NCBI GenBank assembly: GCA_030603165.1
Contig: JAUVYH010000003.1
Span: 1-45,639 of the forward strand
Direction of reading: 5' to 3'
Source of the DNA: Fidelibacterota bacterium
GTDB taxonomy: Bacteria > Fidelibacterota > UBA2242
Length of the DNA stretch: 45,639 nucleotides
The notes under the pieces are model-generated. The model was not told the origin of the DNA, did not search any database, and was given only the letters and a program-made list of their open reading frames with translations. Made by a program: the position numbers and the translations under genes. The number at the start of each line of letters is the position of its first letter. Position 1 is the stretch's first letter. Of the stretch, positions 25,499 to 39,707 are shown piece after piece.

Positions 25499-25520
25499 CG
25501 CCAAAGGCGTCCCCTTGGGG
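25499..25520 (+). mobile_element. 22-nt double-hairpin micro-insertion
   Basis: cgcc-aaa-ggcg tccc-ctt-gggg interrupting tttg|cattttgaaat. Confidence 0.7.
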
Positions 25521-25663
25521 CATTTTGAAATAACAGCCATACCGACTGATTTCAACATGAATAACTCCGATTGAAAATCTAAACCACAACGTGGTTCCAG
25601 CAGTTTTTGCAAAAATTAGAGACAGAATAATCTGCGATAAGTCAGGAGTTCTGATTTTACTTC

Positions 25664-25694
25664 AAGAGGGTGAATTTCTTCACCCTCTTTTTTT
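25664..25694 (+). terminator. Rho-independent terminator (probably the displaced dnaK terminator)
   Basis: aagagggtga...tcaccctctt stem followed by a T run. Confidence 0.8.
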
Positions 25695-25769
25695 ATCCAA
25701 ACACCGTTGAAAACTTTTGGTTTTTAGTGATTTTCATAGTATTTTTCAGCGCTATTTTAGAACAGAATC

Positions 25770-25842
25770 GGCGACGTACCCAAGTGGCTAAGGGAGCGGT
25801 CTGCAAAATCGTTATTCACCGGTTCGAATCCGGTCGTCGCCT
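25770..25842 (+). tRNA. tRNA-Cys(GCA)
   Basis: Acceptor stem GGCGACG/CGTCGCC, U discriminator, anticodon loop CTGCAAA, T-arm GGTTCGAATCC; CCA not encoded. Confidence 0.96.
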
Positions 25843-25855
25843 CGTTTTTTTTCGT

Positions 25856-25930
25856 GCCGAAGTGGCGGAATTGCCTCAACGGAGATCCCTTTGGGAGTAG
25901 ACGCAAGGGACTTAAAATCCTTCGTAGGTT
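25856..25930 (+). pseudogene. Truncated 5' duplicate of tRNA-Leu(TAA) with a 23-nt insertion in the D-loop
   Basis: Matches 25960-26001 exactly apart from cctcaacggagatccctttggga at 25874-25896; lacks the T-arm and 3' acceptor strand. Confidence 0.85.
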
Positions 25931-25959
25931 TAAAACGCTTTTTAAAATTTTATCACAGT

Positions 25960-26045
25960 GCCGAAGTGGCGGAATTGGTAGACGCAAGGGACTTAAAATC
26001 CCTCGAAGGTAATCCTTCGTGTCGGTTCGAGTCCGACCTTCGGTA
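25960..26045 (+). tRNA. tRNA-Leu(TAA)
   Basis: Acceptor stem GCCGAAG/CTTCGGT, anticodon loop CTTAAAA, long variable arm, GGTTCGAGTCC; CCA not encoded. Confidence 0.96.
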
Positions 26046-26049
26046 CAAC

Positions 26050-26084
26050 AAAATCCCGTCGGTAAACGGCGGGATTTTCGTTTT
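26050..26084 (+). terminator. Rho-independent terminator of the tRNA cluster
   Basis: aaaatcccgtc...ggcgggatttt hairpin plus T-rich tail. Confidence 0.8.
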
Positions 26085-26322
26085 AAATACCATCCCTCAA
26101 AATTCTTGCATCATTTTCCGATAAGTTCCAATAAAAACCTGTAAGGAAACTCACCCCCTGTCCCCCTCTCTTGAAAACAAGTGGGAACGCACCTATCTTT
26201 ATCCTCTAAAGAAACATTTATAAAGGAGTGAGTTCAATATAACTTTCAACTTAACACAAGTCCTAAAGAGAGCCCCACATCTCAACCGGAATACTTTATT
26301 GTGGACTTGTGTCAAGTTCTGA

Positions 26323-29300
26323 TTATTTGAGTATCACACACTTCTTTACATCTGAGAATCGACCTGCATCAATTTTATACAGATACACTCCTGAGCCTAC
26401 CTTTGAAGCGTCCCATTGAACCGAATAGTATCCCGGTTCCTTTGATTGATTCTCTAAAACTTCCAGCGCCTGACCGGCGATATTGTATATCGTCAAAGTG
26501 ACATACGATTTTTCGGGAATCGCATACTGAATGGTTGTAACCGGATTGAATGGGTTGGGATAATTCCGGCTTAAAGAATATTCTGTCGGGATTCCACTAA
26601 CATCTAAATCTATAGCTGCTATTCGAGATAAGGTGGATACGGCAACATCATTTTTAACGGCGCCTTCATTCCAACGCAGCTCATCGAGCGATACTGTTGT
26701 CTCAACTCCGCTAAAACTGGCATTAATGACAAAACGCACCGTAGCAAACACACCGCTTTCGCCGTCCGGAGCAGAACCGGCGCCCGCAAAAACTAGCCTG
26801 CCATCCGATTCATTCACTTCGATCAAAAACCCTTCCGTTACTTGCGACCACTCAATATCTTTATAGACTAATTGCTCCGGTCTGTAAGACATACATCCCT
26901 CAAAAGAGAGTATATTACTACCTCCGCTTAATGTGAGCGGTACCTCTATCACCTGCCCCGGAACATAACTGCCATCTTTCATCGTGATAGAGCCCTTTGC
27001 CAGGAGATTACCGTTTGAAGTATCATAAGGCAGTGTATCAATCAGTCCAACTCCGTATTGAAGAATTATCGATGCATCAAGCGCCGTAACTGTGTCATTG
27101 AGCGTCACATCGGCATTGACTAATCCCTGACAATCGAGTGTCTCTACTTCAATTACATATTTTAAGATAAGAGCGGCGTCATGCGCCTGAACTTCTCCAT
27201 TACTATCTACGTCACCATAAACAGGAATAGGTTTAATATAAATTCCACCATTGGTAATCGATACCGAATCATCGCCTGTATTAAATAATGCGGATTCGAT
27301 ATTGATCGGTACGAAATTGCATGGCTCTCCTGTAACAGCAAACTTCAGCCGGCAAAAGACGCCACTTCCTGAAATATCTTCCGCACCGGCAAACCAGGAA
27401 ATTATCAGGCTGTCACCAGTCTCATTGACGGCATTACTCCAGCCGGCGCCGCCTGTCATGCTTAAAGAAGTATCTACTTCAATGAAATCTAATCCATCTT
27501 GATAACCGCTGAAAGTAAGTTCGGCGGAGTCGTAATTTTTCCCATTGGGGAATTCAACATTTACAGGAATATCAATCGTATCACCTATAAATGCATTAAG
27601 AGAATCAACGGCAATTAATATATTTTCTCCCCAGCCACCAACATGGTAAAGGCTGTCTATTGTAGCAGAATCAAGGATGCAATTAAAAATTTTTATATCA
27701 TCTAAAGAACCTTTAAAACTAAGCAAATTGAGGGGTGCACCCCAATAACCCCAATAGATAGTATCATTTTGGGATACAGGATGATAGCCGCCATCATTTG
27801 TATAAATTCCGTTAAACATATTATTTCCATCAATATAGAGTTTCAAGTAATTATTTATAGAATCATATTGTAAAAATACATGATGCCAAGTATCAAATAA
27901 TGGGGGATAATCTGTAACTACATGATAACCATTATTATCGGCTAATTGTTTTCTTGAATATATATATCCTTCCTGACCAGGTTTTGAAAAACTATACATA
28001 CAACAATAAGAGTTATTATACCAGAAAAAGTGTGGCCATTCAATATCTGGATCTGGGAAAGATGATTTATACCAAAATGACAAGCCCATTGTGCCAATAT
28101 TACCTATTTCAGATATAATATAATCATCAATTCCATCAAACTCATAAGCGCTATTTCCATTCCCAAATCTATCAGCTGTCAGAGTTGCTCCACTCACAGT
28201 GCCATCATTCCCATTCCCGCTTTCATCATTGGCATTGCCATTAAAAGGGTAATAAGCAACCAGGTTAGGTGGTTCTGAGTCTTTTATGCAGCGTACAGAA
28301 AATCCATCTTCTTTACCATATCCATCAGGGCTAACATAAATACCCGAACTATCATAATCTAATGTTCGCCCCACAGCTTCCGTAGTGTTCAAATCGGAAG
28401 AAGACCAAAGGTATGCTTGAAAACCAATAAAGTTATAGGGACCATCCCAGCCTCGAGAACCACCAGGCAAAGCAGAAAAACCGGATTCATTAGTAGCTCC
28501 AGTATTGGGGCTATTCCAATGGGTTGTACCTATTTCTTTTAGTTTGCTGCCTTCATCTGTTCCCCGCCATCCGGTAGCATTTGCATCCGATTCACTCATA
28601 CCTAGATACATTTCCAGTTCTTTCCATTCTTCATCAGTTGGCACATGCCAGCCTTCAGGAGCGATATTGCGGTTGTCATTCACAGCGTACCAGTTATAAA
28701 GTACTCCGTAAGTGTCACCATTGTTATCATCATTATCATAAAAGCAATAAGCGCCCTCAGTCATTGCAGACCATACCGTGTTGTTATTAATTCTGGTAAT
28801 TGCTTCGCCATTTCTGTAATGTGTCACTTTCAGGTTCTCCGCCATCCACCATTGGTTTCCAATTTTTACTGTTTGATAGGTATTGTCATCTATATCAGTA
28901 ACTGTCCCTGTCTCGTAAAGTGCCCATCCTCCTTCGTGATAAAGAGAATCAATCTCTGATTTAGTTAAGGCCCGGTTGTAGATGCGGATGTCATCTATAA
29001 CACCATCATAATAATAGTCACCGCCGAAGGTGTTCTCACCGATATAGAGGTCGTTATCAGATGGAGAAATTGTTCCCGTTTGTGTAATGGTCGTATCCAA
29101 AGTATTATTGATATATATCCTCATTTCGTTTTCATTATAGGTCATTACGAAGTGATAATATTTATCCAATTCAAGATCAAAAGTCCAGTGATCGATGAAA
29201 GAGTCAGGAGAGTACTTAAAACCCCAATGTAAATCTCTTTGTCTTTGTCCCAAATCCCACGATCCGTATTTTTCAATTATTGCATATGGGAAATAATATG

Positions 29301-29619
29301 GTGCCTCTGACTCAGGTTTAATCCATAATGACACCGTGATTTGGTCAATGCTATCTATGGTTGGAGAATTTGGAACTTGTATATAATCATCAATCCCATC
29401 AAAACTATAAGCGCTATTTTCATTCCCAAACCGGTCAGTTGCTAAAGTTGGAGCATGTCCTGTTGTATCCCCATGATTACCATTCCCGCTTTCATCATTG
29501 GCATTACCGTTGAAAGGGTAATAAGCAACCAGCCCATCATTCAAGCCAGCAAACACACTTCCCGTAATAATGAATAAAACCATTAATGCAATCAAAATAC
29601 AATTAAGGTTCTTTTTCAT
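26323..29619 (-). CDS. Secreted modular protein: LamG - Fibrobacter succinogenes major domain - LamG - cohesin - dockerin - cohesin - C-terminal sorting domain
   Basis: Signal peptide; LVAYYPFNGNANDESGNGN twice; TVKIGNQWWMAENL...GFSVRCIKD; GDVDSNGEV..HDA/ADVTLND.V.ALDA dockerin duplet; NYPNPFNP...SGVYLYK C-terminal domain. Confidence 0.85.
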   Translation of the reverse strand: MKKNLNCILIALMVLFIITGSVFAGLNDGLVAYYPFNGNANDESGNGNHGDTTGHAPTLATDRFGNENSAYSFDGIDDYIQVPNSPTIDSIDQITVSLWIKPESEAPYYFPYAIIEKYGSWDLGQRQRDLHWGFKYSPDSFIDHWTFDLELDKYYHFVMTYNENEMRIYINNTLDTTITQTGTISPSDNDLYIGENTFGGDYYYDGVIDDIRIYNRALTKSEIDSLYHEGGWALYETGTVTDIDDNTYQTVKIGNQWWMAENLKVTHYRNGEAITRINNNTVWSAMTEGAYCFYDNDDNNGDTYGVLYNWYAVNDNRNIAPEGWHVPTDEEWKELEMYLGMSESDANATGWRGTDEGSKLKEIGTTHWNSPNTGATNESGFSALPGGSRGWDGPYNFIGFQAYLWSSSDLNTTEAVGRTLDYDSSGIYVSPDGYGKEDGFSVRCIKDSEPPNLVAYYPFNGNANDESGNGNDGTVSGATLTADRFGNGNSAYEFDGIDDYIISEIGNIGTMGLSFWYKSSFPDPDIEWPHFFWYNNSYCCMYSFSKPGQEGYIYSRKQLADNNGYHVVTDYPPLFDTWHHVFLQYDSINNYLKLYIDGNNMFNGIYTNDGGYHPVSQNDTIYWGYWGAPLNLLSFKGSLDDIKIFNCILDSATIDSLYHVGGWGENILIAVDSLNAFIGDTIDIPVNVEFPNGKNYDSAELTFSGYQDGLDFIEVDTSLSMTGGAGWSNAVNETGDSLIISWFAGAEDISGSGVFCRLKFAVTGEPCNFVPINIESALFNTGDDSVSITNGGIYIKPIPVYGDVDSNGEVQAHDAALILKYVIEVETLDCQGLVNADVTLNDTVTALDASIILQYGVGLIDTLPYDTSNGNLLAKGSITMKDGSYVPGQVIEVPLTLSGGSNILSFEGCMSYRPEQLVYKDIEWSQVTEGFLIEVNESDGRLVFAGAGSAPDGESGVFATVRFVINASFSGVETTVSLDELRWNEGAVKNDVAVSTLSRIAAIDLDVSGIPTEYSLSRNYPNPFNPVTTIQYAIPEKSYVTLTIYNIAGQALEVLENQSKEPGYYSVQWDASKVGSGVYLYKIDAGRFSDVKKCVILK

Positions 29620-29924
29620 GATCGTTTCCTCCCTAAGATATTTTCTAATGATTTAAAAACCAACTATCGTATATACTTTTTGCACAATCCTCTTTATAAA
29701 AAACATCAAATATCATGAGCAAAACATCCCGATATCCGGAACTGTAAAAAAAACAATTCCCGGCGGATTACATTTTTTATCCTCTAATAAATTTATTAAC
29801 CTGAAATACTTCAATTCATTCACGGTTTACATTTGCAAACAAAATACTATTAATATTTTCGTTATGCAAGAACAATTTAGGTTTGATCGTAATGCCTACC
29901 TGGGTAAGCCAGAATTTCAAATTT

Positions 29925-29946
29925 CCCCAAAGGGGTGCCTTCGGCA
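29925..29946 (-). mobile_element. 22-nt double-hairpin micro-insertion
   Basis: Minus strand tgcc-gaa-ggca cccc-ttt-gggg; removing it restores the heptamer run tttgaaa-cttgaaa-tttgaaa. Confidence 0.75.
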
Positions 29947-30000
29947 CAAGTTTCAAATTGCAAATTGTAAATTTATAAGAAAATTCCCTTTGGGATAAGA

Positions 30001-30087
30001 GTAACTTTGCGAAAGCTATCTAAAAGAGATTTACAGTATTCATCTGTATCTTTCGCATTACCGAGAACGAACTTTCGCAAAGATTAC
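30001..30087. repeat. REP-like inverted doublet
   Basis: gtaactttgcgaaag ... ctttcgcaaagattac. Confidence 0.65.
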
Positions 30088-30189
30088 TTCTGGTTTATTG
30101 GTTGATTAGTTTACTGGTTTATCGGGGCTGGATGTTGAATTTTTAATTGAAGATTGCTAATAAAATCACAATATCAAAACACCAAATTT

Positions 30190-30211
30190 CTCCAATGGGA
30201 CGCCTTTGGCG
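30190..30211 (-). mobile_element. 22-nt double-hairpin micro-insertion
   Basis: Minus strand cgcc-aaa-ggcg tccc-att-ggag, 20/22 identical to 25499-25520; removing it restores caccaaa-tttcaaa-tttctaa on the + strand. Confidence 0.75.
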
Positions 30212-30372
30212 CAAATTTCTAATTACTCTCCCTTCCTTTCTCCCCTGCTCCAATTTATCGAAGGTTTACTCCAAATAACTGAAGGATTACGTTTGATCAA
30301 AATCTGGATTACGGTATTGTATATATGTCGAATTATCAATAATATTGGAGAGCAGAAATTAAAGGAGGCTAC

Positions 30373-31389
30373 GTGGCACAAGAACCGGATTTTTACGACA
30401 TAGAAATCACATTGCAAACCCTAAAATATGCAACCCGGCAATTGGTGGCTGAATTGGATGTGGAACGGGTAGTTTTCCATGCACTTCACTCCATCGCCGA
30501 TTTCAGTAACAGTGGCAAATTATCACTTTTACTATTGAATAGTGATTCAACAACAGCTAATGTCGCGGGGATATTAATTGACGGAGAATTCAGCACGCCA
30601 AACGAACAAATTACCATAAGAAACACACCACTTGCAGAAATATTGGAAACAAAGCAATCCGGGACTTATGACATCCTGAAAAAGACGCCGTATCCAATCC
30701 CGACCTCTAAAATATTTCATACCAAATCAAAATGCAAATGCCTTCCATTAGTGGGCACAAATCATAAAGTTAACGGGTTTATAAACTTTGAGGAAAAGTC
30801 CGGCAAGATAATCCACAAGAACCATCAGGAAATATTAACCGTTTTGACTACCTTGATCGCAATGACGCTTGAAAATGCCAGACTGTTCCAGCTGGCAACA
30901 ATCGATGGGCTTACCGGTCTATATGTTCGCCGATACTTCGATATCCGTCTTAAAGAAGAAATTACACGACTAAAGCGCATCGACTCAAATCTTGCTATAA
31001 TTATGATGGATATCGATCACTTTAAATCCGTTAACGACACATTCGGACACCAGCAGGGGGATGTTGTATTAACAGAACTTGCCTCCATTCTTAAAAACGC
31101 CATTCGTAAAGATCTGGATATTCCCTGCCGTTACGGGGGTGAGGAATTTGTCGCTATTCTGCCCGGCACCGATCAGGAAGGCGCCATCGTCCTGGCGGAA
31201 CGCATCCGGAAACGATGTGAGGATTTTCAATTCAAAAGCCTTAGCGATGATCCGATTCGGGTTACGATCAGTGGAGGAGTTGCGTCGATCAATTCCAATA
31301 CGATTATTACAAAAGAAGAATTATTCGAGATAGCGGATAAAAAATTATACGAAGCAAAACAGGCGGGACGAAATAGAATCCGGTTTTAA
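30373..31389 (+). CDS. GAF-like sensor diguanylate cyclase
   Basis: DGLTGL, DIDHFK.VND.FGH..GD, RYGGEEF and LYEAKQAGRN; GTG start after GGAGG RBS. Confidence 0.93.
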   Translation: MAQEPDFYDIEITLQTLKYATRQLVAELDVERVVFHALHSIADFSNSGKLSLLLLNSDSTTANVAGILIDGEFSTPNEQITIRNTPLAEILETKQSGTYDILKKTPYPIPTSKIFHTKSKCKCLPLVGTNHKVNGFINFEEKSGKIIHKNHQEILTVLTTLIAMTLENARLFQLATIDGLTGLYVRRYFDIRLKEEITRLKRIDSNLAIIMMDIDHFKSVNDTFGHQQGDVVLTELASILKNAIRKDLDIPCRYGGEEFVAILPGTDQEGAIVLAERIRKRCEDFQFKSLSDDPIRVTISGGVASINSNTIITKEELFEIADKKLYEAKQAGRNRIRF

Positions 31390-31440
31390 CCCTATAACGT
31401 CATTTAGGAAATATGATGCGATATATATTTCCAACTAACA

Positions 31441-31609
31441 CCGGCACATCTAAAATTATCTCAAAAAAGAACAAAGATTAACCCCCGGTTTGAACCGGGG
31501 GAATGAAGGTTGTGCACCACGTTTCCGACTTTAGTCGGTAAGTTACCCGAATGAATTCGGGGGTATGTTATTAGTGCTCAGTATCCACCCAATGAATTGG
31601 GTGGTTAAC
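31441..31609 (-). repeat. Four-hairpin non-autonomous element, full copy
   Basis: Reverse-complement match to the element at 6511-6759, with compensatory stem changes (ccccggtt-tg-aaccgggg). Confidence 0.9.
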
Positions 31610-31672
31610 TTTTAGAAGTGAGTTCCTGACGCAACGGAGAATGGAATTAAATTTTTAAGTTACGTAGTAGGG

Positions 31673-32524
31673 TTAATCGCTGCGCAATGTCACCCAAGAT
31701 ACAGTTCCTAAAATAAACAAACCACCAAGAACCGTTCGAAGCTGCGGATATTCTCCAAGAACAAGTATCGCCAGCAGGATGCCATAAACCGGCTCCAGGG
31801 AAGCGATTATTCCGGCGGTATATGCGCGGATATGCTTCATGCTGTGAATAAAAAGCGTATGCGCCAGAGCGGTGCAAATTATCCCGAGAAATGCTATATA
31901 AGCAAGATCATTTATAGCTATGCGCGGCGCTTGAATAATGATAACGGGTAATAATATCAGGCAGGCGATGAAGTCCTGATAGAAGGCAATCTTCAGCGCC
32001 GGGTAAACAGATGTATATTTCTTATTAAAGATTGTCAGTAAGGCAAATGTCCAGCCGGAGATCAAACCGTACAAAACTCCCTGCATAATATTGTTTCGGA
32101 TATCAAATTTCGGAATAATAACAATCATTCCTGCCATTACAATGAGAGCCGTGATTACATCGATTATTCTCAATCGGCATTTTGTGAACAGCGGCTCACA
32201 TAGAGTTACAAAAACCGGGAAACTGGAATAGGTCAACAGACCAATCGCAACTGTTGATACCTGAATTGAATAAAAAAATGTCAACCAGTGAACAGCCAAC
32301 AGCATTCCCATCAACAGAAATCCGCAAATATCACGTCGATTCTGAAATTTAAAGCTGATCCGGTATCTTCTGATGACGATCCACAAAACGACCGACGCGA
32401 AAGCCGTTCGCCCAAAGACGATCGTTACAGGACTTGCCGCAATTAATTTTCCAAATAGTCCCGCCAGACCGAATAACAGCACGGCGATATGAATTCCCGA
32501 TAGATGTTTTATTCGTGTAGCCAT
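31673..32524 (-). CDS. EamA/DMT family transporter
   Basis: About 10 TM helices in two repeats; LEPVYGILLA.LVLGE motif. Confidence 0.9.
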   Translation of the reverse strand: MATRIKHLSGIHIAVLLFGLAGLFGKLIAASPVTIVFGRTAFASVVLWIVIRRYRISFKFQNRRDICGFLLMGMLLAVHWLTFFYSIQVSTVAIGLLTYSSFPVFVTLCEPLFTKCRLRIIDVITALIVMAGMIVIIPKFDIRNNIMQGVLYGLISGWTFALLTIFNKKYTSVYPALKIAFYQDFIACLILLPVIIIQAPRIAINDLAYIAFLGIICTALAHTLFIHSMKHIRAYTAGIIASLEPVYGILLAILVLGEYPQLRTVLGGLFILGTVSWVTLRSD

Positions 32525-32536
32525 TCCGGTATAATG

Positions 32537-32565
32537 AAAGTGTCAGGCGTAACGCCTGACACTTT
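32537..32565. repeat. Perfect palindrome with 14-bp arms (terminator or REP-like)
   Basis: aaagtgtcaggcgt-a-acgcctgacacttt between the M48 gene stop and the EamA start. Confidence 0.6.
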
Positions 32566-32588
32566 GCAAAACTCCCGGTATTACGATT

Positions 32589-33809
32589 TTAATGAAATAC
32601 TCTATTAAATCTGCGCTTATTCTCAACATTCCAATCGACATTTTTTGTTAATTTTGCAGATATAAATGCAGTGACTTTCTCCGATCTGTCCTCGATCGCA
32701 TCGTACTGCCAGTTGGATTCCGGGTGCCAGAAATCGCTGCTCGTCATTGATTTAATTGTCTTCAGAACAGAAGCCAGACAATGTGGATCGTAACCAGCCC
32801 GGTAAGCATAAATGACGCCCATCATATCGGCTTCGTATTCATATTCATTCTGACGGCGGGCAGTTGCCGCTTCGAACATTTGAAACGCAAGATCATCCAG
32901 CTCTTTATCGCTAAACCCTTCAGGCATATCTTCCTCTAATTCGTCAAATGCATCCTCGGCAACAATTTGTGTTTTGCGTTTAGTCACCTCGGAATAGCCA
33001 TGCTGCTGAACCACGTGGGAAATCTCATGCCCTATCACACAAGCAAGTTCCGCCTCACTTTGCAGGACATTAAGCAAGCCCAGTGAGACGAAGATCATTC
33101 CGTTTGGTGTAGCGTAGGCAGTAGGACGTTCATCGGAAAGAATATAGAATTTAAAAGGATAGTAGTAGAGCGGCGTGCTTTCCACTATAAGATTCCCGAC
33201 CATATTGATGTACCGCAGTTTCTTAATATCCGTCTCAAGTCCGCCGGTTGCAATTTGTCCCGCCACGGCAAAACCCATTTTTTCAAGATAGGAGTTGATT
33301 TCGGGTTCTTTATTCTCAATTTTTATTTGTCTGTATCGTTTCCTTATTTTTTTCATGTTTCGATTTCTGTAAGTCTCTTGCCGGAAATTTTCATACTCCC
33401 GGGACTGAAAGAACACCTTATCATATTGATCCAAAAAAGTCAAACTTCCATCATGTTTTTTAAAATAGGTCTGGGCAAATCCTTTTACTGCGCCGCTGGC
33501 GGACGCCCTTGATATCATACTTGGCTGACCTGACGGAAAACTCGTATTTGATATACTGCCGGATTTTCTATCCTGTTGAGATAATGCGTTATTCGAAATC
33601 CAGCCTTCCTGCCCGCTAACCCGGATTTTCGCCCATCCCGAAGTCTCTTTTAAAATTGTCACTATCGCATCTTTCACTAATATTCCGAGAAGCGGATAAT
33701 AACTGCCGGGACCTTTGCGGAGATGGGTATTGTCCTGGTAAATAGTAGCCTCTTGTTGTGCCAGAATCATCATCGACATTAAAAGGATTATTACTACAAA
33801 TCGTTTCAT
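32589..33809 (-). CDS. SH3b-domain peptidase M48 family protein
   Basis: Signal peptide; LRKGPG...W.KI....EGWIS SH3b; AYATPNG, HEISH, EYEAD and AGYDP motifs. Confidence 0.88.
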   Translation of the reverse strand: MKRFVVIILLMSMMILAQQEATIYQDNTHLRKGPGSYYPLLGILVKDAIVTILKETSGWAKIRVSGQEGWISNNALSQQDRKSGSISNTSFPSGQPSMISRASASGAVKGFAQTYFKKHDGSLTFLDQYDKVFFQSREYENFRQETYRNRNMKKIRKRYRQIKIENKEPEINSYLEKMGFAVAGQIATGGLETDIKKLRYINMVGNLIVESTPLYYYPFKFYILSDERPTAYATPNGMIFVSLGLLNVLQSEAELACVIGHEISHVVQQHGYSEVTKRKTQIVAEDAFDELEEDMPEGFSDKELDDLAFQMFEAATARRQNEYEYEADMMGVIYAYRAGYDPHCLASVLKTIKSMTSSDFWHPESNWQYDAIEDRSEKVTAFISAKLTKNVDWNVENKRRFNRVFH

Positions 33810-33832
33810 CTTTCACCTCAAATTTTATTAAA

Positions 33833-35992
33833 TCATTTCACAGTTATATTAAAAATACCTTTTTCATCGATCAGCTCCGGATTCTTAAGCAATTGCCGGC
33901 AGCGTTCAATAAAAACCTGCGCAACGGAATCATCCGGCTGCATGCTAAACACTTTTGAAAAGCTTTCAGCGGCGTCTGTATATTTTTTCCGGCGGTACAT
34001 CTCTAATGCTTCGTTGTGTATAGACAATAATTCCATAGTTTCGTTGTCAACATCGCTTCTCTCGGCAATAACCGTGAATATCTTCAGCGGTTTATCTCTT
34101 CCCTTGACCCGGATATAATCAATTTCCCGGCACACAATAATATCTTTCACAAAATCATAAGTGCTTTCAGAAATTATATTTTGAGTGCCGTACAATTTAT
34201 TGACGCCCTCCAGCCTTGCGGACAGGTTGACCGTATCGCCAATCGCCGTGTAATCCATCCTGTTCCGCGAACCTATATTGCCCACGATCAAATTCCCGCT
34301 ATTTACTCCCACGCGGGTTATCAACGGCACCTTTTTGCCGGCTTTTTCAACACTCATCTTCGATAGCGCTTTAAAGTCCAGCACCGCCCGGCAGGTTTGC
34401 AAGGCGTGTTCTTTTGATTCAACCGGAGCGCCGAAGATAGCCATAATTCCGTCACCGGTATATTTATCGAGCATTCCGTTATTTTTGAATATTATCGTTT
34501 CAACTCGCTCAAAGTAATCGTTAAGAAACTGGACGATTTCATGGGGAGCGAATAACTCCGAAGTGCCTGTGAAATCCTGCAAATCGGTAAACAGTACGGT
34601 CGCTTCAATTTCCATACCGCCCATTTCAATCTCACCGGAATTCCGCGTTAAATTATCGACAACTGCCGGATGTAAGTATCTGTTAAACACCTTTTTCACC
34701 AACGCTTTCTCCCTGCCCTCGGCGAGATAGTTAACCACCAGAACACCGATAACGGATACTATCAGGGCAATTTCAGAACGAACTGCCGGGAAAAAAGTCA
34801 ACCGGTATTGAAAAAGAAATACAGCGCAAATCAGTGGAACAAGGAACATAATTAACGAAGCAATTGAGGCTTGCCACACCTTAAAATTCTGCCAGATCAC
34901 GCATAACAGAACCAGAATCAGAAATGCGGCAAGAAGCCATAAGCCATCTCCAAAATGAGAAATATAGTCATCCCGAATAATATTGGAAAAAAGGGTGGCA
35001 TAAATTTCAACGCCCGGATAGGGTTCAACGGAGCTGAAAGGCGTTGTTTTCAAATCTAAAAGTCCGGCGGCTGTCGCTCCGATAAACACAGCTTTGTCTT
35101 TAAATGTCTCAACCGAAATTTGCGGTTTTTCACCATTTATCCACTGCAAATAGGAATTGATCAACTGGGCATAGGAAATATAGGTAAACGTATTCCCGGG
35201 TCCGCCCGCTCCATACCAGTAAAGTTCAAACATGCCATTTTTATCAACCGGAATAGAATGATCTCCAATATCAAACGCCTGCTTTTCCTGATCATAAGCG
35301 ATATCACTATCACCGGTATAAAGCATTGCCGCCGCCAGCGCCATGTACGGAATTATTCTGTTTTGATAGCTGTACAACAGTGGAATACGGCGACAAACGC
35401 CATCGTCATCGGTGAAAAAATTCACTGCGCCGGGAATTGCCATCCCTTTTTGAAATTGGTGTATCGGTAATGTCAGATTTGGATAGCGCCTGACTAATTG
35501 TTCCGGTCCGGTGAATTGTGCCTCAATTGAGAATTGATCTACTAATGGTTCAAGAGTGTTATGAGTGGAATCCTCCATCTGGGTAGCAAGAATGACACGC
35601 CCGGAGTGCAACATTGCCTCTGAAAACTGCGCATCGGCATAAGCTGCCTGAACATTCAACCGGTCAATATCAGGCGATGAAAAGATAATGTCATAGGCAA
35701 TTAATTTCGCTCCGCAATGCGATAAATAATCAGTGGTAATCGCATAAACATCGCGGGGCCAGGGCCACAGTATTCCAGAATTTTCCTGAAAATAATCCAG
35801 ACTGTTCTGGTCAATTGCAATGATAACAACCTCGTCGGGATGCTGCTCCGGATTAACATTACGATAAAGCAGATCCTGTCCCTGTTTTTCCCATCTGTCG
35901 ATAAGCGCAAACCGCGAACCTAACAGCGCCAACCCGGCAGAAACACCGGCAATTAAAAGCGAGATCAGGCACTTTTGAGTAATACGATTCAT
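33833..35992 (-). CDS. CHASE2-domain class III adenylate/guanylate cyclase with C-terminal TPR
   Basis: WPWPR, DDDGVCRR and YPGVE CHASE2 motifs; three TM helices; LFTDLQDFT, DKYTGDGIMA and DYTAIGDTVNLSARLE (Lys/Asp pair typical of ATP specificity). Confidence 0.93.
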   Translation of the reverse strand: MNRITQKCLISLLIAGVSAGLALLGSRFALIDRWEKQGQDLLYRNVNPEQHPDEVVIIAIDQNSLDYFQENSGILWPWPRDVYAITTDYLSHCGAKLIAYDIIFSSPDIDRLNVQAAYADAQFSEAMLHSGRVILATQMEDSTHNTLEPLVDQFSIEAQFTGPEQLVRRYPNLTLPIHQFQKGMAIPGAVNFFTDDDGVCRRIPLLYSYQNRIIPYMALAAAMLYTGDSDIAYDQEKQAFDIGDHSIPVDKNGMFELYWYGAGGPGNTFTYISYAQLINSYLQWINGEKPQISVETFKDKAVFIGATAAGLLDLKTTPFSSVEPYPGVEIYATLFSNIIRDDYISHFGDGLWLLAAFLILVLLCVIWQNFKVWQASIASLIMFLVPLICAVFLFQYRLTFFPAVRSEIALIVSVIGVLVVNYLAEGREKALVKKVFNRYLHPAVVDNLTRNSGEIEMGGMEIEATVLFTDLQDFTGTSELFAPHEIVQFLNDYFERVETIIFKNNGMLDKYTGDGIMAIFGAPVESKEHALQTCRAVLDFKALSKMSVEKAGKKVPLITRVGVNSGNLIVGNIGSRNRMDYTAIGDTVNLSARLEGVNKLYGTQNIISESTYDFVKDIIVCREIDYIRVKGRDKPLKIFTVIAERSDVDNETMELLSIHNEALEMYRRKKYTDAAESFSKVFSMQPDDSVAQVFIERCRQLLKNPELIDEKGIFNITVK

Positions 35993-36021
35993 AGATATGT
36001 TTTCCGATACATTATGAAGAC

Positions 36022-36071
36022 CTATTCAAGCGCTTCTCATTCAAGATTTCAATCCCATTTATCAAAATTGG
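36022..36071 (-). pseudogene. Degenerate duplicate of the transglutaminase gene 3' end
   Basis: Translates NFDKWD*NLE*EALE* versus YFDKWDWNLEWEVIQ; 36038-36063 matches 37238-37263 at 25/26 nt. Confidence 0.8.
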
Positions 36072-36112
36072 CAATAGTTCACCACTGATTTTCACGGAGT
36101 TACACTGAATTA

Positions 36113-36442
36113 TCAAAATATTCTTCTCATTATTTCATCCCGACTCGTCGGGACAGCACCAAAATTAAACAATAACCCTACTCTTAATCGTGTTGTTTTT
36201 CCCATAGAAATCACTACGTGATAAGTAATTAATTGTGCTTCATCCTGATTTGTTATCTTTTTCATGGCTTTGTTTTCTACAAGAATTCTCTTTTCAACAA
36301 GAAGATCATCTCGAAATTTTCGATCAAACACAACATTTTTATAATGAACATCTAATTCTAACTGTCTTTGGTAAGATATACCCATTAAATCAAGCTCGTA
36401 ACACAAGGCATCTTCATTCACCCCGTGTAATAGATTGTTCAT
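36113..36442 (-). pseudogene. GxxExxY family (PD-(D/E)XK-like) protein, degenerate
   Basis: EDALCYEL...RQ..L.V.YK...DLLVE..ILVENKA...AQL...GLLFNFG; N-terminal GxxExxY motif missing; two internal palindromic insertions. Confidence 0.8.
36200..36221 (-). mobile_element. 22-nt double-hairpin micro-insertion inside the GxxExxY CDS
   Basis: Minus strand tcac-gta-gtga tttc-tat-ggga between att-aat-tac-tta (INYL) and aaa-aca-aca (KTT). Confidence 0.7.
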
Positions 36443-36591
36443 TAATCGTCTTATTATCTTCTTTTTTATTTATTACACGGGGTGAATATTGCAACTTGAT
36501 CATTTTATCTCTTTTCTGTGATATTCCGTGTCCTTCAGTGGTGAACTATTATCAAAATTGGAATTTGACAACCGCACGAAACAAAAGTCAA

Positions 36592-36867
36592 TTAACGATA
36601 AATATTATTGTGAGCGCCAATATCAATTAGGGTAATTTCTTTTTTCTCTATTTGCAAGATTAGCGTTATTCTATATTTATATGTAAGTCGAATGGCAGAT
36701 AAACCTTTGAATTTTCCTTTAAGCGAATGTAATTGTAGAGAAGGATGTAATGGATCCTTAATTAATATCTCAATAATTTTTTCAAATTGAGACCTCAGAT
36801 CAGGATGACGTTTGATAAATTTATTAGCAGTCTTTAAAAATTGATCCGGTACAACTAAAGTGAACAT
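36592..36867 (-). CDS. Type II toxin, RelE/ParE superfamily (YafQ-like mRNA interferase)
   Basis: 91 aa; DPLHPSLQLHSLKG...YRI...LIDIGAH pattern; overlaps the upstream antitoxin. Confidence 0.85.
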   Translation of the reverse strand: MFTLVVPDQFLKTANKFIKRHPDLRSQFEKIIEILIKDPLHPSLQLHSLKGKFKGLSAIRLTYKYRITLILQIEKKEITLIDIGAHNNIYR

Positions 36868-37145
36868 TGGTTTTCTGGATAGTTTTCAATGGTGTTCATA
36901 AAATCTGAGACTGAGCCAAATCGCTTAACTTTTTTATTCTTAATATCCTCCAAAGCTGATTGTATTCGAAGGAGATACGAATTTTCTTGTTCTCTGATTA
37001 ACTCATCGTAAGTAGGTTCATCTAAAATAACATATTGTGGTCGGTTATTCTTAATGATGTGAACTGCTCCCTTTTTTAGTTCTTCATCAACGGCGCTAAT
37101 GCCTTTTCGTTTGATCTCTTGTGCTGGAATAGTATTCATTTTCAC
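36855..37145 (-). CDS. Phd/YefM-family antitoxin
   Basis: IPAQEIKRKG...VHIIKNNRPQYVIL....Y pattern; directly upstream of the toxin. Confidence 0.85.
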   Translation of the reverse strand: MKMNTIPAQEIKRKGISAVDEELKKGAVHIIKNNRPQYVILDEPTYDELIREQENSYLLRIQSALEDIKNKKVKRFGSVSDFMNTIENYPENQCSL

Positions 37146-37209
37146 ACCTTTTTTAGTACTTAATAGAGTATAACTTATATTTTTCTTATAATCAAGAGTT
37201 TTTAGTTTC

Positions 37210-38709
37210 TTATCTTGCGAAAGGTTGAATTACCTCCCATTCAAGATTCCAATCCCATTTATCGAAATAGAGATTTGCTTCTTTCCACTCTACTTCGCCG
37301 CGCTGGGAATCAATAGTTTCGGACCGGACATGTCTCTTTTCAGGTTCAAATTTCACACTGTAATCATCATTGAATATCAGGCGGTAGCTGTCCATTCCGG
37401 ATAAATAAAACCATATTAGTTTTTCATCCGTCGTTTTTCGCAAACCATAAGTCACATCCATCGGAACCCAGCCATAAGGTTCAAAATAGATTTCGCTCCA
37501 GTCATGCATGCTGTCTTTCGGCGGTTGAAATTCCCAACCGGACTGCCATTTTGTTGGAATTCCATTCAAACGGCAAAGCGTCATAAAGGTCAATGTCTGC
37601 ATCCCGCAATCACCATGTCGGTTTTCAATAACATAATGAGGAATGCTGAAAAAGGTTGAGTACTCACGGGCAGAAGCCCAGGTAATATTCGTATCTACCC
37701 ACGCAAATAATTTCTGAGCAATACGATAGGGATTTTTTTCATCACCGATGATGGATTTGGAAAGTTCCTTCAATTGGGGTGTAAATTCAATATGGCGCCC
37801 TCTTTCGCAAAGATAAGGTTTTAAATTTTCATCCTGAGGCGTTGGCAATACCTTATCCGGGTCGATAGGCACATAAACTCCATGAGACAGATACGTATAT
37901 TCCACGAAAAATTCAGTTGGTTCATCACACTTCACCGGTTTCTCAAAATAGATTGTCCGTTGCAGATTCCTGTTATCGGCAAGCTGATACACATCGGGCT
38001 CGGTTCTTAATATTCGGATGTCGGTTTGCCGGTTCTCGATTTCCCTTGGGAAAGGAATCCAGCAGCGCAGAATCTCACCTTCGGGAACGACATTTTTATC
38101 AACAATTAAACTCTGTTTAATCCGCAATTTAACCGGGTGAACATATTTTTTACCACTTTTCACTGCTGCTGTGATGATGTCTTTGATATGATTATCCAGT
38201 GGAAATTCTTTCTTTTTTGAATCATCACCTTTTTGCGTATCTACCTTTTCCTTAATGATTTTCAACTCTTTATTCAGACGAAAGAGATTATATTGCGCAT
38301 TATTAAAATACCGTTTTTGTCCATCGATGATTTGATATTCCAGAGACTTTTCTGCTTCCCATCTTCTTAAATTTTCTAGGGTTACATCAGGAACATATTG
38401 CTTGACGTATTCAATTACTTTTTCTTCGGTAAGTGTAAAATCCATTTCAATCCGGTCCATGCGGACAAGATTAAAATTTAAACCAGCCCGTAAACTTTCC
38501 GACATATCTTGATTCATGCTCAAATCTTCCATAATTAAACGACGCGCTTCTTTGAATTCACCATTTTTTATTAACTCATTATATGATGGCTTATGGGAAC
38601 ATTGAAAGAGACCGGCAATAAGTCCCAGCAACAGAATCACTTTGATCAATATTGCAGCCTGTTTCATAATAAACATCTCCCTGGTAATATTTGTAGCTAT
38701 ATCTTGCAT
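37210..38709 (-). CDS. Transglutaminase-like domain lipoprotein
   Basis: GDC...HDWSEIY...GWVPMD catalytic triad; lipobox-like GLFQC; true start probably MKQAA at 38667. Confidence 0.88.
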   Translation of the reverse strand: MQDIATNITREMFIMKQAAILIKVILLLGLIAGLFQCSHKPSYNELIKNGEFKEARRLIMEDLSMNQDMSESLRAGLNFNLVRMDRIEMDFTLTEEKVIEYVKQYVPDVTLENLRRWEAEKSLEYQIIDGQKRYFNNAQYNLFRLNKELKIIKEKVDTQKGDDSKKKEFPLDNHIKDIITAAVKSGKKYVHPVKLRIKQSLIVDKNVVPEGEILRCWIPFPREIENRQTDIRILRTEPDVYQLADNRNLQRTIYFEKPVKCDEPTEFFVEYTYLSHGVYVPIDPDKVLPTPQDENLKPYLCERGRHIEFTPQLKELSKSIIGDEKNPYRIAQKLFAWVDTNITWASAREYSTFFSIPHYVIENRHGDCGMQTLTFMTLCRLNGIPTKWQSGWEFQPPKDSMHDWSEIYFEPYGWVPMDVTYGLRKTTDEKLIWFYLSGMDSYRLIFNDDYSVKFEPEKRHVRSETIDSQRGEVEWKEANLYFDKWDWNLEWEVIQPFAR

Positions 38710-38771
38710 CTGTAATAGGATTAATTTACCATTTTTTCAGTAAAATGAAATGCGTATTTATTGAATCGACC

Positions 38772-38882
38772 TAACCTTCGGAAGGTTTTTTGTTCGCTCC
38801 GGTATATCTAAAATTAGCGTAAAAAATAAAAAAGATTAACCCCCGGATTTATCCGGGGGGGGGTAAAGGCTCGCACTATGTT
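38772..38882 (-). repeat. Partial four-hairpin element plus AACCTTC REP
   Basis: Reverse-complement match to 6390-6440 and 6745-6785. Confidence 0.85.
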
Positions 38883-38892
38883 GCCAACGGGA

Positions 38893-38958
38893 AGACCTGT
38901 CAGGTTTAACAGATTCTTCTACTTCAGATAGGCGTAAGCGATTAAACCTGACAGGTCT
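38893..38958. repeat. REP doublet with 17-bp inverted arms
   Basis: agacctgtcaggtttaa ... ttaaacctgacaggtct. Confidence 0.85.
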
Positions 38959-39136
38959 AAGTCCCGCACTGAAAAACCTTGAGTTAAGTTCTTTTCATAA
39001 ATTCATGTCAGAATTAAAAACTTCTAATAAGAACTTGACTTAAGTTAGAAGTAGAATAGAAACCAATTTGGCTTCGCTGAAAATTGGTTTCATCTTTTAT
39101 TCTCTTACTCGGCAGCCGTTACACTCTTGTGGGATA

Positions 39137-39338
39137 TTGCTTTAGACCAGGGCGCCCCCATGTTGTCATCCTGAGGGAAGCGAAGCGACGAAGGATCGCT
39201 TTTAGACCAGAGCTCCCCTGTATTGTCATTCTGAGGGAGGAACGACCGCTTCAAAGAAGTCCCTGGTGGGAAAGAATTGCTTTAGACCAAGGCGCCAGTC
39301 CAACCCGATTCTTCTTCACTTCGTTCATCAGAATGACA
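39137..39338. repeat. TGTCATTCTGA...TCAGAATGACA palindromic repeat with a tandemly duplicated left arm
   Basis: tgtcatcctga at 39164, tgtcattctga at 39224, tcagaatgaca at 39328-39338; gcttt(t)agacca three times. Confidence 0.8.
39249..39271 (+). mobile_element. 23-nt double-hairpin micro-insertion
   Basis: cttc-aaa-gaag tccc-tggt-ggga between gaccg|aagaat; absent from the sister repeat unit (gacg-aaggat). Confidence 0.75.
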
Positions 39339-39345
39339 GCTTTTA

Positions 39346-39526
39346 TTCCGGCACATCTAAAATCAGCACGAAGAAGAGTAAAAATTAACACCCGGTTTTA
39401 ACCGGGGGGATGAAGGTTGCACACCACGTTTCCGACTTTAGTCGGTAAGTTACCCGAATGAATTCGGGGGTTTGTTGTTAGTGCTCACAGTACCCACCCA
39501 ATTAATTGGGTGGTTAATGTTTGCTT
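39346..39526 (-). repeat. Four-hairpin non-autonomous element, full copy
   Basis: Reverse-complement match to 6483-6656; near-identical to 31441-31609. Confidence 0.9.
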
Positions 39527-39707
39527 TGGCGAGATGAATTATTTCGTGTAATTTGCCTGTCCTGTAGGGAAGAATGACCATACAGGGTGAAATTCGTGGT
39601 TTACTTTCAAAAAAACATGCTTTGAACATTCGTCTGTCTGGCATAGCTTTTGTCACTTCAAATGCCGGTTTATTGAATACTATTATTAAAATCATTGAGA
39701 GAAAGAC

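Follow-up and report, generated by a model that had tools for sequence, protein, structure and literature searches.

A probable family of ~22-nt double-hairpin micro-insertion elements in Fidelibacterota

The DNA analyzed here, referred to as the window, is a stretch of 45.6 kb that forms contig C58 of G000, a draft marine metagenome-assembled genome (MAG) of Fidelibacterota (Marinimicrobia/Neomarinimicrobiota) comprising 3.31 Mb in 255 contigs (G+C 0.40, 92% complete). Its proteins include Fib_succ_major and T9SS-tail, and it carries six short inserts, each formed by two consecutive mini-hairpins, which are the subject of this study. A preliminary description, made from the letters of the window, had listed these inserts, and all six were confirmed in position and sequence. 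Scoring relied on R1, a covariance model built from alignment A1 (44 rows: 40 genome copies and 4 window copies), with elements 2 and 6 kept outside the training alignment. With filters off, the six sites gave the six top R1 scores in the window, and elements 2 and 6, though untrained, reached E-values of 2–3e-4. The elements, their hosts and related features are as follows:

25499..25520: element 1, CGCC-AAA-GGCG / TCCC-CTT-GGGG, within a heptamer-like run, flanked by tatttg and cattttg (R1 25.4 bits)
25854..25924, + strand: pseudo-copy of tRNA-Leu(UAA), truncated to its 5' part and containing element 2, recognized by sequence comparison with the intact gene
25874..25896: element 2, 23 nt, in the D-loop of the tRNA-Leu pseudo-copy (R1 21.4 bits)
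25960..26046, + strand: intact tRNA-Leu(UAA) called by ARAGORN, the empty-site reference for element 2
29925..29946, - strand: element 3, TGCC-GAA-GGCA / CCCC-TTT-GGGG, inside a heptamer run (R1 33.4 bits)
29985..29995: solitary TCCC-TTT-GGGA hairpin resembling half an element (weak; R1 10.3 bits, over model positions 1–11 only)
30190..30211, - strand: element 4, CGCC-AAA-GGCG / TCCC-ATT-GGAG (R1 21 bits)
36072..36560, - strand: PDDEXK_3 (PF13366) gene cassette that contains element 5 and lies between copies of the direct repeat atcaaaattgg
36200..36221, - strand: element 5, TCAC-GTA-GTGA / TTTC-TAT-GGGA, inside the PDDEXK_3 open reading frame (ORF)
39220..39292, + strand: repeat unit (gtcattctgaggga...) resembling a miniature inverted-repeat transposable element (MITE), host of element 6, with an exact empty paralogue at C227:23031
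39249..39271: element 6, CTTC-AAA-GAAG / TCCC-TGGT-GGGA, 23 nt (R1 20.9 bits)

For comparison we used G077, a genome of the same genus whose main syntenic blocks are 91–93% identical to those of G000. Element 1 recurs as identical or near-identical copies with related flanks in contigs C164, C128 and C232, and a search of orthologous loci for empty sites found a clean one in G077, where its site is occupied by the junction tatttg/cattttg (here and below, a slash marks the insertion point). Element 3 is missing from G077 together with two heptamers (36 nt in all). The host of element 2 had been described as a tRNA D-loop: removal of 25874–25896 indeed restores tRNA-Leu, yielding the first ~48 nt of the intact gene at 25960–26046, 86 nt downstream, but the host is a truncated pseudo-copy upstream of that gene, and this pseudo-copy is missing from G077. 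The first stem of element 2 is 3 bp long with a 4-nt loop. A sister unit of the element 6 host, at ~39161–39211, is insert-free. The ~100 nt around element 4 are absent or divergent in G077, which carries other sequence around elements 4 and 6; likewise, the nested-repeat intergenic blocks at 31390–31674 and 38790–39560 are absent or replaced there. Judged from these alignments, intergenic repeat DNA appears to turn over rapidly between the two genomes despite the identity of their syntenic blocks.

Element 5 interrupts a protein-coding host. Its paralogues in C154 and C255 are empty, whereas that in C60 is filled and frameshifted, and removal of the insert restores the conserved QLINYLKTT segment of PDDEXK_3 proteins. 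The restoration of INYL/KTT codons proposed earlier is clean in C60, whereas in the window an extra 4-nt deletion lies beside the insert; the 22-nt element and this deletion give a net change of +18 nt, and the window frame therefore stays open, reading QLI-TYHVVISMG-KTTRL across the element. The second stem of element 5 has decayed (TTTC/GGGA, versus TCCC in paralogues). The window copy also lacks the N-terminal GxxExxY part, given which the gene may be dead anyway.

The inserts belong to a family present far above chance throughout G000. The strict pattern taken from the preliminary description (N4-N3/4-N4' + YCCC-N3/4-GGGR) matched 74 times, against 1–6 times in ten dinucleotide shuffles, and abutting perfect 4-bp hairpins (8/8 pairs) with C:G at both loop-closing pairs numbered 98, against 2–10; the comparison with shuffled controls that it proposed thus revealed a clear genome-wide excess. 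Relaxing the search to at least 7/8 pairs with C:G closing gave 298 matches versus 105–139 in shuffles, an excess of ~180 copies. The same size class emerged from a census that presupposes no structure, in which indels between paralogous repeats were collected by self-BLAST of G000: the 169 merged indels of 10–59 nt had their mode at 22 nt (32 cases), and of these 32, 19 showed 8/8 and 6 showed 7/8 Watson-Crick pairs when read as a double hairpin. The corresponding numbers for 5000 random 22-mers were 0 and 34. A pattern scan of viral contigs gave 0 matches.

Short motifs, weak folding z-scores and a draft MAG in 255 contigs leave room for a trivial account, in which the motif arises by chance, is an artefact of assembly or adapters, or was ancestrally present and has been precisely deleted from the empty sites. 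Set against it are the 14- to 20-fold excess over shuffles, the occurrence of the motif in 43 independently assembled genomes, and the presence of the insert in an independent-run contig spanning 36154–36417, though possibly derived from a paralogue. As to deletion, taking out the insert leaves canonical tRNA-Leu and tRNA-Ser copies and a canonical PDDEXK_3 frame, so the empty state is ancestral. We regard this account as barely credible.

Alignment of 44 copies defined the anatomy of the element. It comprises two abutting 11-nt mini-hairpins, each with a 4-bp stem, a C:G loop-closing pair and a triloop, and has the consensus T-YY-C[RAA]G-RR-A / T-YY-C[TTY]G-RR-A (here the slash separates the two hairpins). 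The modal length is 22 nt, with a range of about 21–24 nt; C4, G8, C15 and G19 are invariant in the 44 copies and A7 and T16 nearly so, 8 of 53 distinct perfect triloop 22-mers having been discarded by eye as probable chance matches before A1 and the flank statistics were compiled. A TCCC...GGGA second hairpin, earlier taken as a shared feature, is common but lacking in 15 of the 44 rows, as read by eye. Loop 2 approximates the complement of loop 1, and the same architecture is therefore presented on both strands (dyad symmetry at the purine/pyrimidine level); R1 matches both strands at every site. Pairing is nevertheless local, with census inserts of 22 nt averaging 7.1/8 local versus 4.9/8 whole-palindrome pairs. 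The stem vocabulary is small (TCCC, TCTC, TGCC, TTCC and others). The most frequent first loop is GAA, seen in 30 of the 137 double hairpins whose stems each have two or more G:C pairs; AAA, ATA and GTA loops also occur. As had been proposed, stem sequences change while pairing persists: six of the eight pairs have changed on both sides in the 44-copy alignment, and one orthologous insert shows a T-A/C-G swap.

The two halves are combined non-randomly. In 51 non-redundant contexts we counted 19 distinct stem pairs versus 24.3 ± 1.5 on re-pairing (P 0.0012), and the type TCCC+TCTC occurs in 12 different contexts. This non-randomness, together with the recurrence of the same 22-mer types in unrelated contexts and in other genomes, indicates that the elements spread as units. 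It also weakens a further candidate, the independent addition of each half to the two 3' ends of a break. An origin of the hairpins de novo, site by site, through template switching or fold-back synthesis in the course of replication or break repair, would suit the perfect stems of many sequences, the solo half-like hairpins found in G000 (61 and 63) and sites prone to structure or slippage, such as heptamer runs and hairpin loops. The dependence between halves and the identical 22-mers at unrelated sites and in other genomes speak against it, as do the invariant C:G closing pairs and the RAA/TTY loops, which indicate a common source; such an origin is highly improbable.

Variant forms were also seen. 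Derivatives of 18–19 nt with a ~4-nt internal deletion (C181:22241–22258, C130:3541–3558, C218:2253–2270 and C134:1331–1349) share their host site with full copies and form a single longer hairpin; from their sequences they appear to be decaying or variant copies. A second micro-indel family consists of 15-nt inserts of the form CCTGT + CCCC-TTG-GGGG, which fold as a single hairpin and have exact empty copies. This type accounts for ~18 of the 20 15-nt indels between paralogous repeats (for example C155:14065–14079, C79:3954–3968 and C133:677–691).

Insertion is precise. BLAST searches with the flanks showed that in ~14 host families a paralogue joins the two flanks exactly (gap 0), no base being repeated, and the earlier claim of no target duplication is borne out by exact junctions in paralogous and orthologous empty sites. 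Within the window, the elements follow TTG four times, TTA once and CCG once, just as noted before. Over 102 flanks with both strands pooled, T stands at -3 in 80 and at -2 in 83 (background 0.30), and TT and AA are retained in empty sites. The preferred target is thus TTN/NAA, entered at its dyad, and this accounts for the association of the elements with heptamer runs (…TTTGAAA…) and with the anticodon and T loops of tRNAs. Long reading frames are avoided: stop-free frames of 150 codons or more cover 83% of the genome but contain only 13 of the 98 copies.

The hosts are repetitive or structured DNA, as the preliminary description had suggested, and include heptamer runs, hairpins resembling repetitive extragenic palindromes (REPs), MITE-like units, multicopy PDDEXK_3 genes and tRNA pseudo-copies. 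Such hosts raise the question of whether a few founding insertions were merely spread or erased by duplication and gene conversion among host repeats. Most copies do lie in multicopy hosts, one host family has seven filled and about nine empty members, PDDEXK_3 has 26 copies or fragments, and many identical inserts share identical flanks. The same types nonetheless recur in non-homologous contexts (51 non-redundant ones, with TCCC+TCTC in 12), and the family is present in 43 of 121 genomes. Moreover, the same site of one host family is filled by different elements, TTCC...GGAA in one copy and CCCC...GGGG in another, and a second such pair consists of TCAC-GTA-GTGA and TTCC-AAA-GGAA. We therefore consider host duplication quite unlikely as the source of the family.

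Among these hosts, the PDDEXK_3 cassette (26 copies or fragments in G000) is truncated at or beside an insert in at least 10 copies, by comparison of coordinates by eye. Upstream and downstream sequence is conserved among the G000 copies. The whole cassette at 36072–36560 is missing from G077, and a contig of public run X6 likewise skips 36111–36505. Given its copy number, its conserved surroundings and its insertion relative to G077, the cassette appears to be mobile in its own right. An ORF for a YafQ/ParE-like type II toxin (36592–36867, - strand) directly adjoins it.

A recurrent arrangement, in which a truncated tRNA copy with an insert in a loop adjoins the intact gene, was seen at tRNA-Leu (D-loop; window 25854–26046) and at tRNA-Ser (anticodon loop; C103:21139–21327, locus L092 440–628). 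Removal of the insert in C103 restores the anticodon loop of tRNA-Ser(UGA). In G077, where loci of this arrangement lie in C97 (L072) and C80 (L089), a third case is a 3' fragment of tRNA-Cys whose T-loop contains an insert of ~20 nt. The arrangement may reflect rescue by partial duplication, or insertion tolerated only in pseudo-copies.

Comparison across the phylum places some insertions before the divergence of related genomes. Both G000 and G077 carry the tRNA-Ser pseudo-copy with its insert, and a single compensatory pair (T-A versus C-G) distinguishes the two inserts. Because this insert predates the split of the two genomes and others are genome-specific, the insertions span a range of ages. 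At E ≤ 1e-4, R1 found matches in 43 of 121 sampled genomes of the phylum, G000 included, with 67 candidates per genome scored under stricter filters. The distribution is patchy by family: 14/19 genomes in f1, 6/6 in f5, 12/25 in f8, 4/4 in f10 and 3/4 in f13, with matches among the scored candidates in 0/24 in f7, 0/5 in f3 and 0/6 in f12. Other genomes contain copies of the same architecture, several of them located in the middle of host palindromes.

Taken as a whole, these data are best explained if the six inserts belong to a real dispersed family of ~22-nt non-coding micro-insertion elements moved in trans, a reading to which we assign a probability of roughly 0.75. What had been proposed about a structure-defined element of ~22 nt, its precise duplication-free insertion and its dispersal in trans is thereby retained; the accompanying link to HUH/Y1 enzymes is not. 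The elements would be selfish and non-autonomous, moved by a factor acting in trans and probably recognized through intrastrand mini-hairpins in single-stranded or extruded DNA. Such recognition would explain the perfect local stems, the compensatory changes and the C:G-closed GNA-type triloops.

Several observations weigh against this reading. Folding energies of single 22-mers are weak (z -0.6 to -2.2), so that support for the elements comes from pattern, copy number and empty sites, to which folding energy adds none. The alignment behind the covariation was itself selected for pairing (99% paired by construction), leaving only the diversity of pair types as informative. R1 counts and absences are soft because only part of the candidates was scored (150 of 1450 in G000 and 67 per genome in the phylum). 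Contigs from public runs, which are short, come from related strains, contain at most 40% of the words and leave parts uncovered, gave no clean 22-nt skip at the six sites; these contigs neither support nor refute a 22-nt polymorphism. Host hairpin loops, considered as the main target, contain 7 of 51 contexts, versus 1.7% of random sites and 7.8% of random TTN/NAA sites, and five of the seven come from one host family; there is a modest preference for such loops, but as the main target they were rejected. A search for a longer parent bounded by solo hairpins returned five candidate pairs within 3 kb, none convincing.

The remaining points on this side concern the enzyme. IS200/IS605 elements transpose without target duplication, have hairpin ends and use a short T-rich target 5' of the insertion; their transposition is strand-specific. 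A strict Y1 HUH mechanism, with IS200/IS605 TnpA or a REP-associated tyrosine transposase (RAYT) mobilizing single-stranded DNA whose hairpins serve as left and right ends and inserting it 3' of a T-rich target, would account for the lack of target duplication, the C:G-closed triloop hairpin ends and the TTN 5' flank. G000 provides 14 Y1_Tnp matches, IS200-type and RAYT among them; six Y1 ORFs compared with NCBIfam comprised four IS200-type TnpA, one RAYT above the cut-off and one RAYT below the cut-off only. Across the 121 genomes, however, the motif and Y1_Tnp do not co-occur: 34 of the 43 genomes with the motif have Y1_Tnp, as do 54 of the 78 without it. In family f7, 21 of 24 genomes have Y1 but none of the 24 has the motif, and nine motif-positive genomes have no Y1 match, eight of these being 66–93% complete. 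The elements are also strand-symmetric, at odds with the strand specificity of IS200/IS605.

The Y1 genes of G000 offer no closer connection. RAYTs are usually single-copy. None of the eight RAYT-like genes has a copy of at least 7/8 pairs within 400 nt, and each is flanked by its own distinct REP-like hairpin family (C218:27444–28103, C214:245–847, C92:9087–9866, C177:1508–2044 and C243:6137–6673, among others). The 22-mers are sometimes inserted into loops of these RAYT-associated REP families. One of five IS200-type genes has a perfect copy within 700 nt (C95), and a second (C125) has an imperfect copy ~280 nt away. At C95:4950–5372 (L018), the IS200-type tnpA lies between direct copies of a ~130-nt repeat; the right repeat carries the double hairpin at gccattt/atggtgg and the left one is empty. 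Among the eight RAYT-like and five IS200-type genes, none has the motif as its own end. The HUH/Y1 link of the preliminary description thus finds neither co-occurrence across the genomes nor a Y1 gene flanked by the motif as its own end. A precedent for strand symmetry does exist in REPINs, doublets of REPs, and Bertels & Rainey 2011 (PMC3116915) name the small dispersed repeats (SDRs) of cyanobacteria as candidates for a REPIN-like origin. In balance, a strict Y1 HUH mechanism is rather unlikely.

Other enzymes were considered. PDDEXK_3 as the mobilizing nuclease was rejected: in f5 the motif is present in 6/6 genomes and PDDEXK_3 in 0/6, with the converse in f7. TnpB is absent from G000, and a search for Y2/IS91 gave no match anywhere, controls included. 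A dimeric double-strand enzyme of an unrecognized family (nuclease, recombinase or integrase), inserting a 22-bp duplex bluntly at the TTN/NAA dyad and with the local stems letting a protein recognize extruded or cruciform DNA, would agree with the dyad symmetry of both element and target, insertion at the dyad and the absence of duplication. It would also agree with the absence of a Y1 link and with a patchy distribution, as expected of a system gained and lost. No candidate gene was found for it, and purely double-strand recognition needs no perfect local pairing, yet pairing is local (7.1/8) and not global (4.9/8). We consider it unlikely.

Local stems, DNA-type triloops, the absence of duplication and a T-rich 5' flank together fit a hairpin-recognizing single-strand mechanism best. 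Our best single guess, and a doubtful one, is a trans-acting HUH/Y1 enzyme of the IS200/RAYT type working on either strand, as proposed for REPINs; an unrecognized enzyme is at least as likely. Taken further, and tentatively, the elements could be the smallest self-contained transposable units known outside cyanobacteria, forming a phylum-wide class of 22-bp dyad-symmetric units that target TTN/NAA and are moved by an enzyme family new to transposition, neither Y1 nor DDE and not encoded next to the elements. SDRs would then be another branch of the class, and the hits in tRNA loops would represent recurrent damage followed by rescue through partial duplication.

How an element of ~22 nt moves has been an open question since SDRs were described in 2008, Nostocaceae being then regarded as their only hosts. 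That elements of this kind occur independently in another phylum, and widely (43 of 121 genomes), shows that the phenomenon is general. This second occurrence also provides a sharply defined anatomy, with invariant C:G-closed triloops, strand symmetry and a TTN/NAA target, and makes the enzyme question testable by phylogenetic profiling and oligonucleotide biochemistry. In practical terms, the inserts disrupt reading frames and tRNA copies, cause assemblies to fragment and mislead the annotation of MAGs.

Among known systems, DDE MITEs are likewise small, non-autonomous, multicopy and often nested, but they have terminal inverted repeats and target-site duplications, whereas here there is no duplication and the halves are not mutual complements. 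IS200/IS605 elements and palindrome-associated transposable elements (PATEs) share the absence of target duplication, hairpins at both ends and a short T-rich 5' target. They differ in being about ten times larger and in having a spacer between hairpin foot and element end, strand specificity and a tnpA association. IS200/IS605 elements insert 3' of a fixed 4–5-nt target; the target seen here is TTN, on both strands. REPs and REPINs are also short, hairpin-forming, intergenic and non-autonomous, and REPINs, as two inverted REPs, are strand-symmetric. According to PMC3733652, REPs bear a conserved GTAG or CGTC tag at the hairpin foot; the present consensus lacks such a tag and starts with T-YY-C. 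Its units are of 11 nt, not 20–40 nt, its two halves do not pair with each other, and it does not flank a cognate RAYT gene (0/8). At the structural level, PMC3201870 and PMC13037366 describe d(GNA) triloops closed by C:G as very stable DNA mini-hairpins, and the elements share such triloops with d(GCGAAGC)-type mini-hairpins, which are a structural motif and not a genetic element.

The closest likeness is to SDRs. The preliminary description knew of no element this small, yet the SDRs of Nostocaceae, at 21–27 nt, were published in 2008. Elhai et al. 2008 reportedly described them as repeats of 21–27 nt moved by an enzyme not known, with tandem stem-loops bearing compensatory changes, a fold said to be common to SDR4–6. 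They are also said to lie inside tandem heptamer repeats, mini-transposons, a palindrome and HIP1, and to be present or absent between otherwise alike sequences. Precise insertion of SDR5 into HIP1 is stated in PMC4390886, and papers citing the 2008 work give SDRs as restricted to Nostocaceae. The open-access literature searched contained no description of such elements in Fidelibacterota and none of SDRs outside cyanobacteria. R1 gave 0 matches on the Nostoc punctiforme plasmid pNPUN01 (354 kb), which is possibly SDR-free and hence uninformative on SDRs, and inspection of the first 53 kb of this plasmid without a model revealed heptamer repeats, with no double hairpins or split HIP1.

The elements described here differ from SDRs in their host, Fidelibacterota and not Nostocaceae, and in their relation to HIP1, which is not enriched in G000 (23 copies versus ~19 expected). 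They match SDRs in size (22 nt modal, with 21–24-nt variants; ~98 perfect copies and ~180 in excess of shuffles) and in a fold with compensatory changes (25 of 32 census inserts with at least 7/8 local pairs, and both-side changes in 6/8). They match them also in nesting within heptamer repeats, small transposon-like repeats and palindromes, and in precise presence or absence, as seen in exact empty paralogues and G077 sites. By this analogy, which concerns behaviour, the elements closely resemble SDRs and would extend such repeats to a second phylum, Fidelibacterota.

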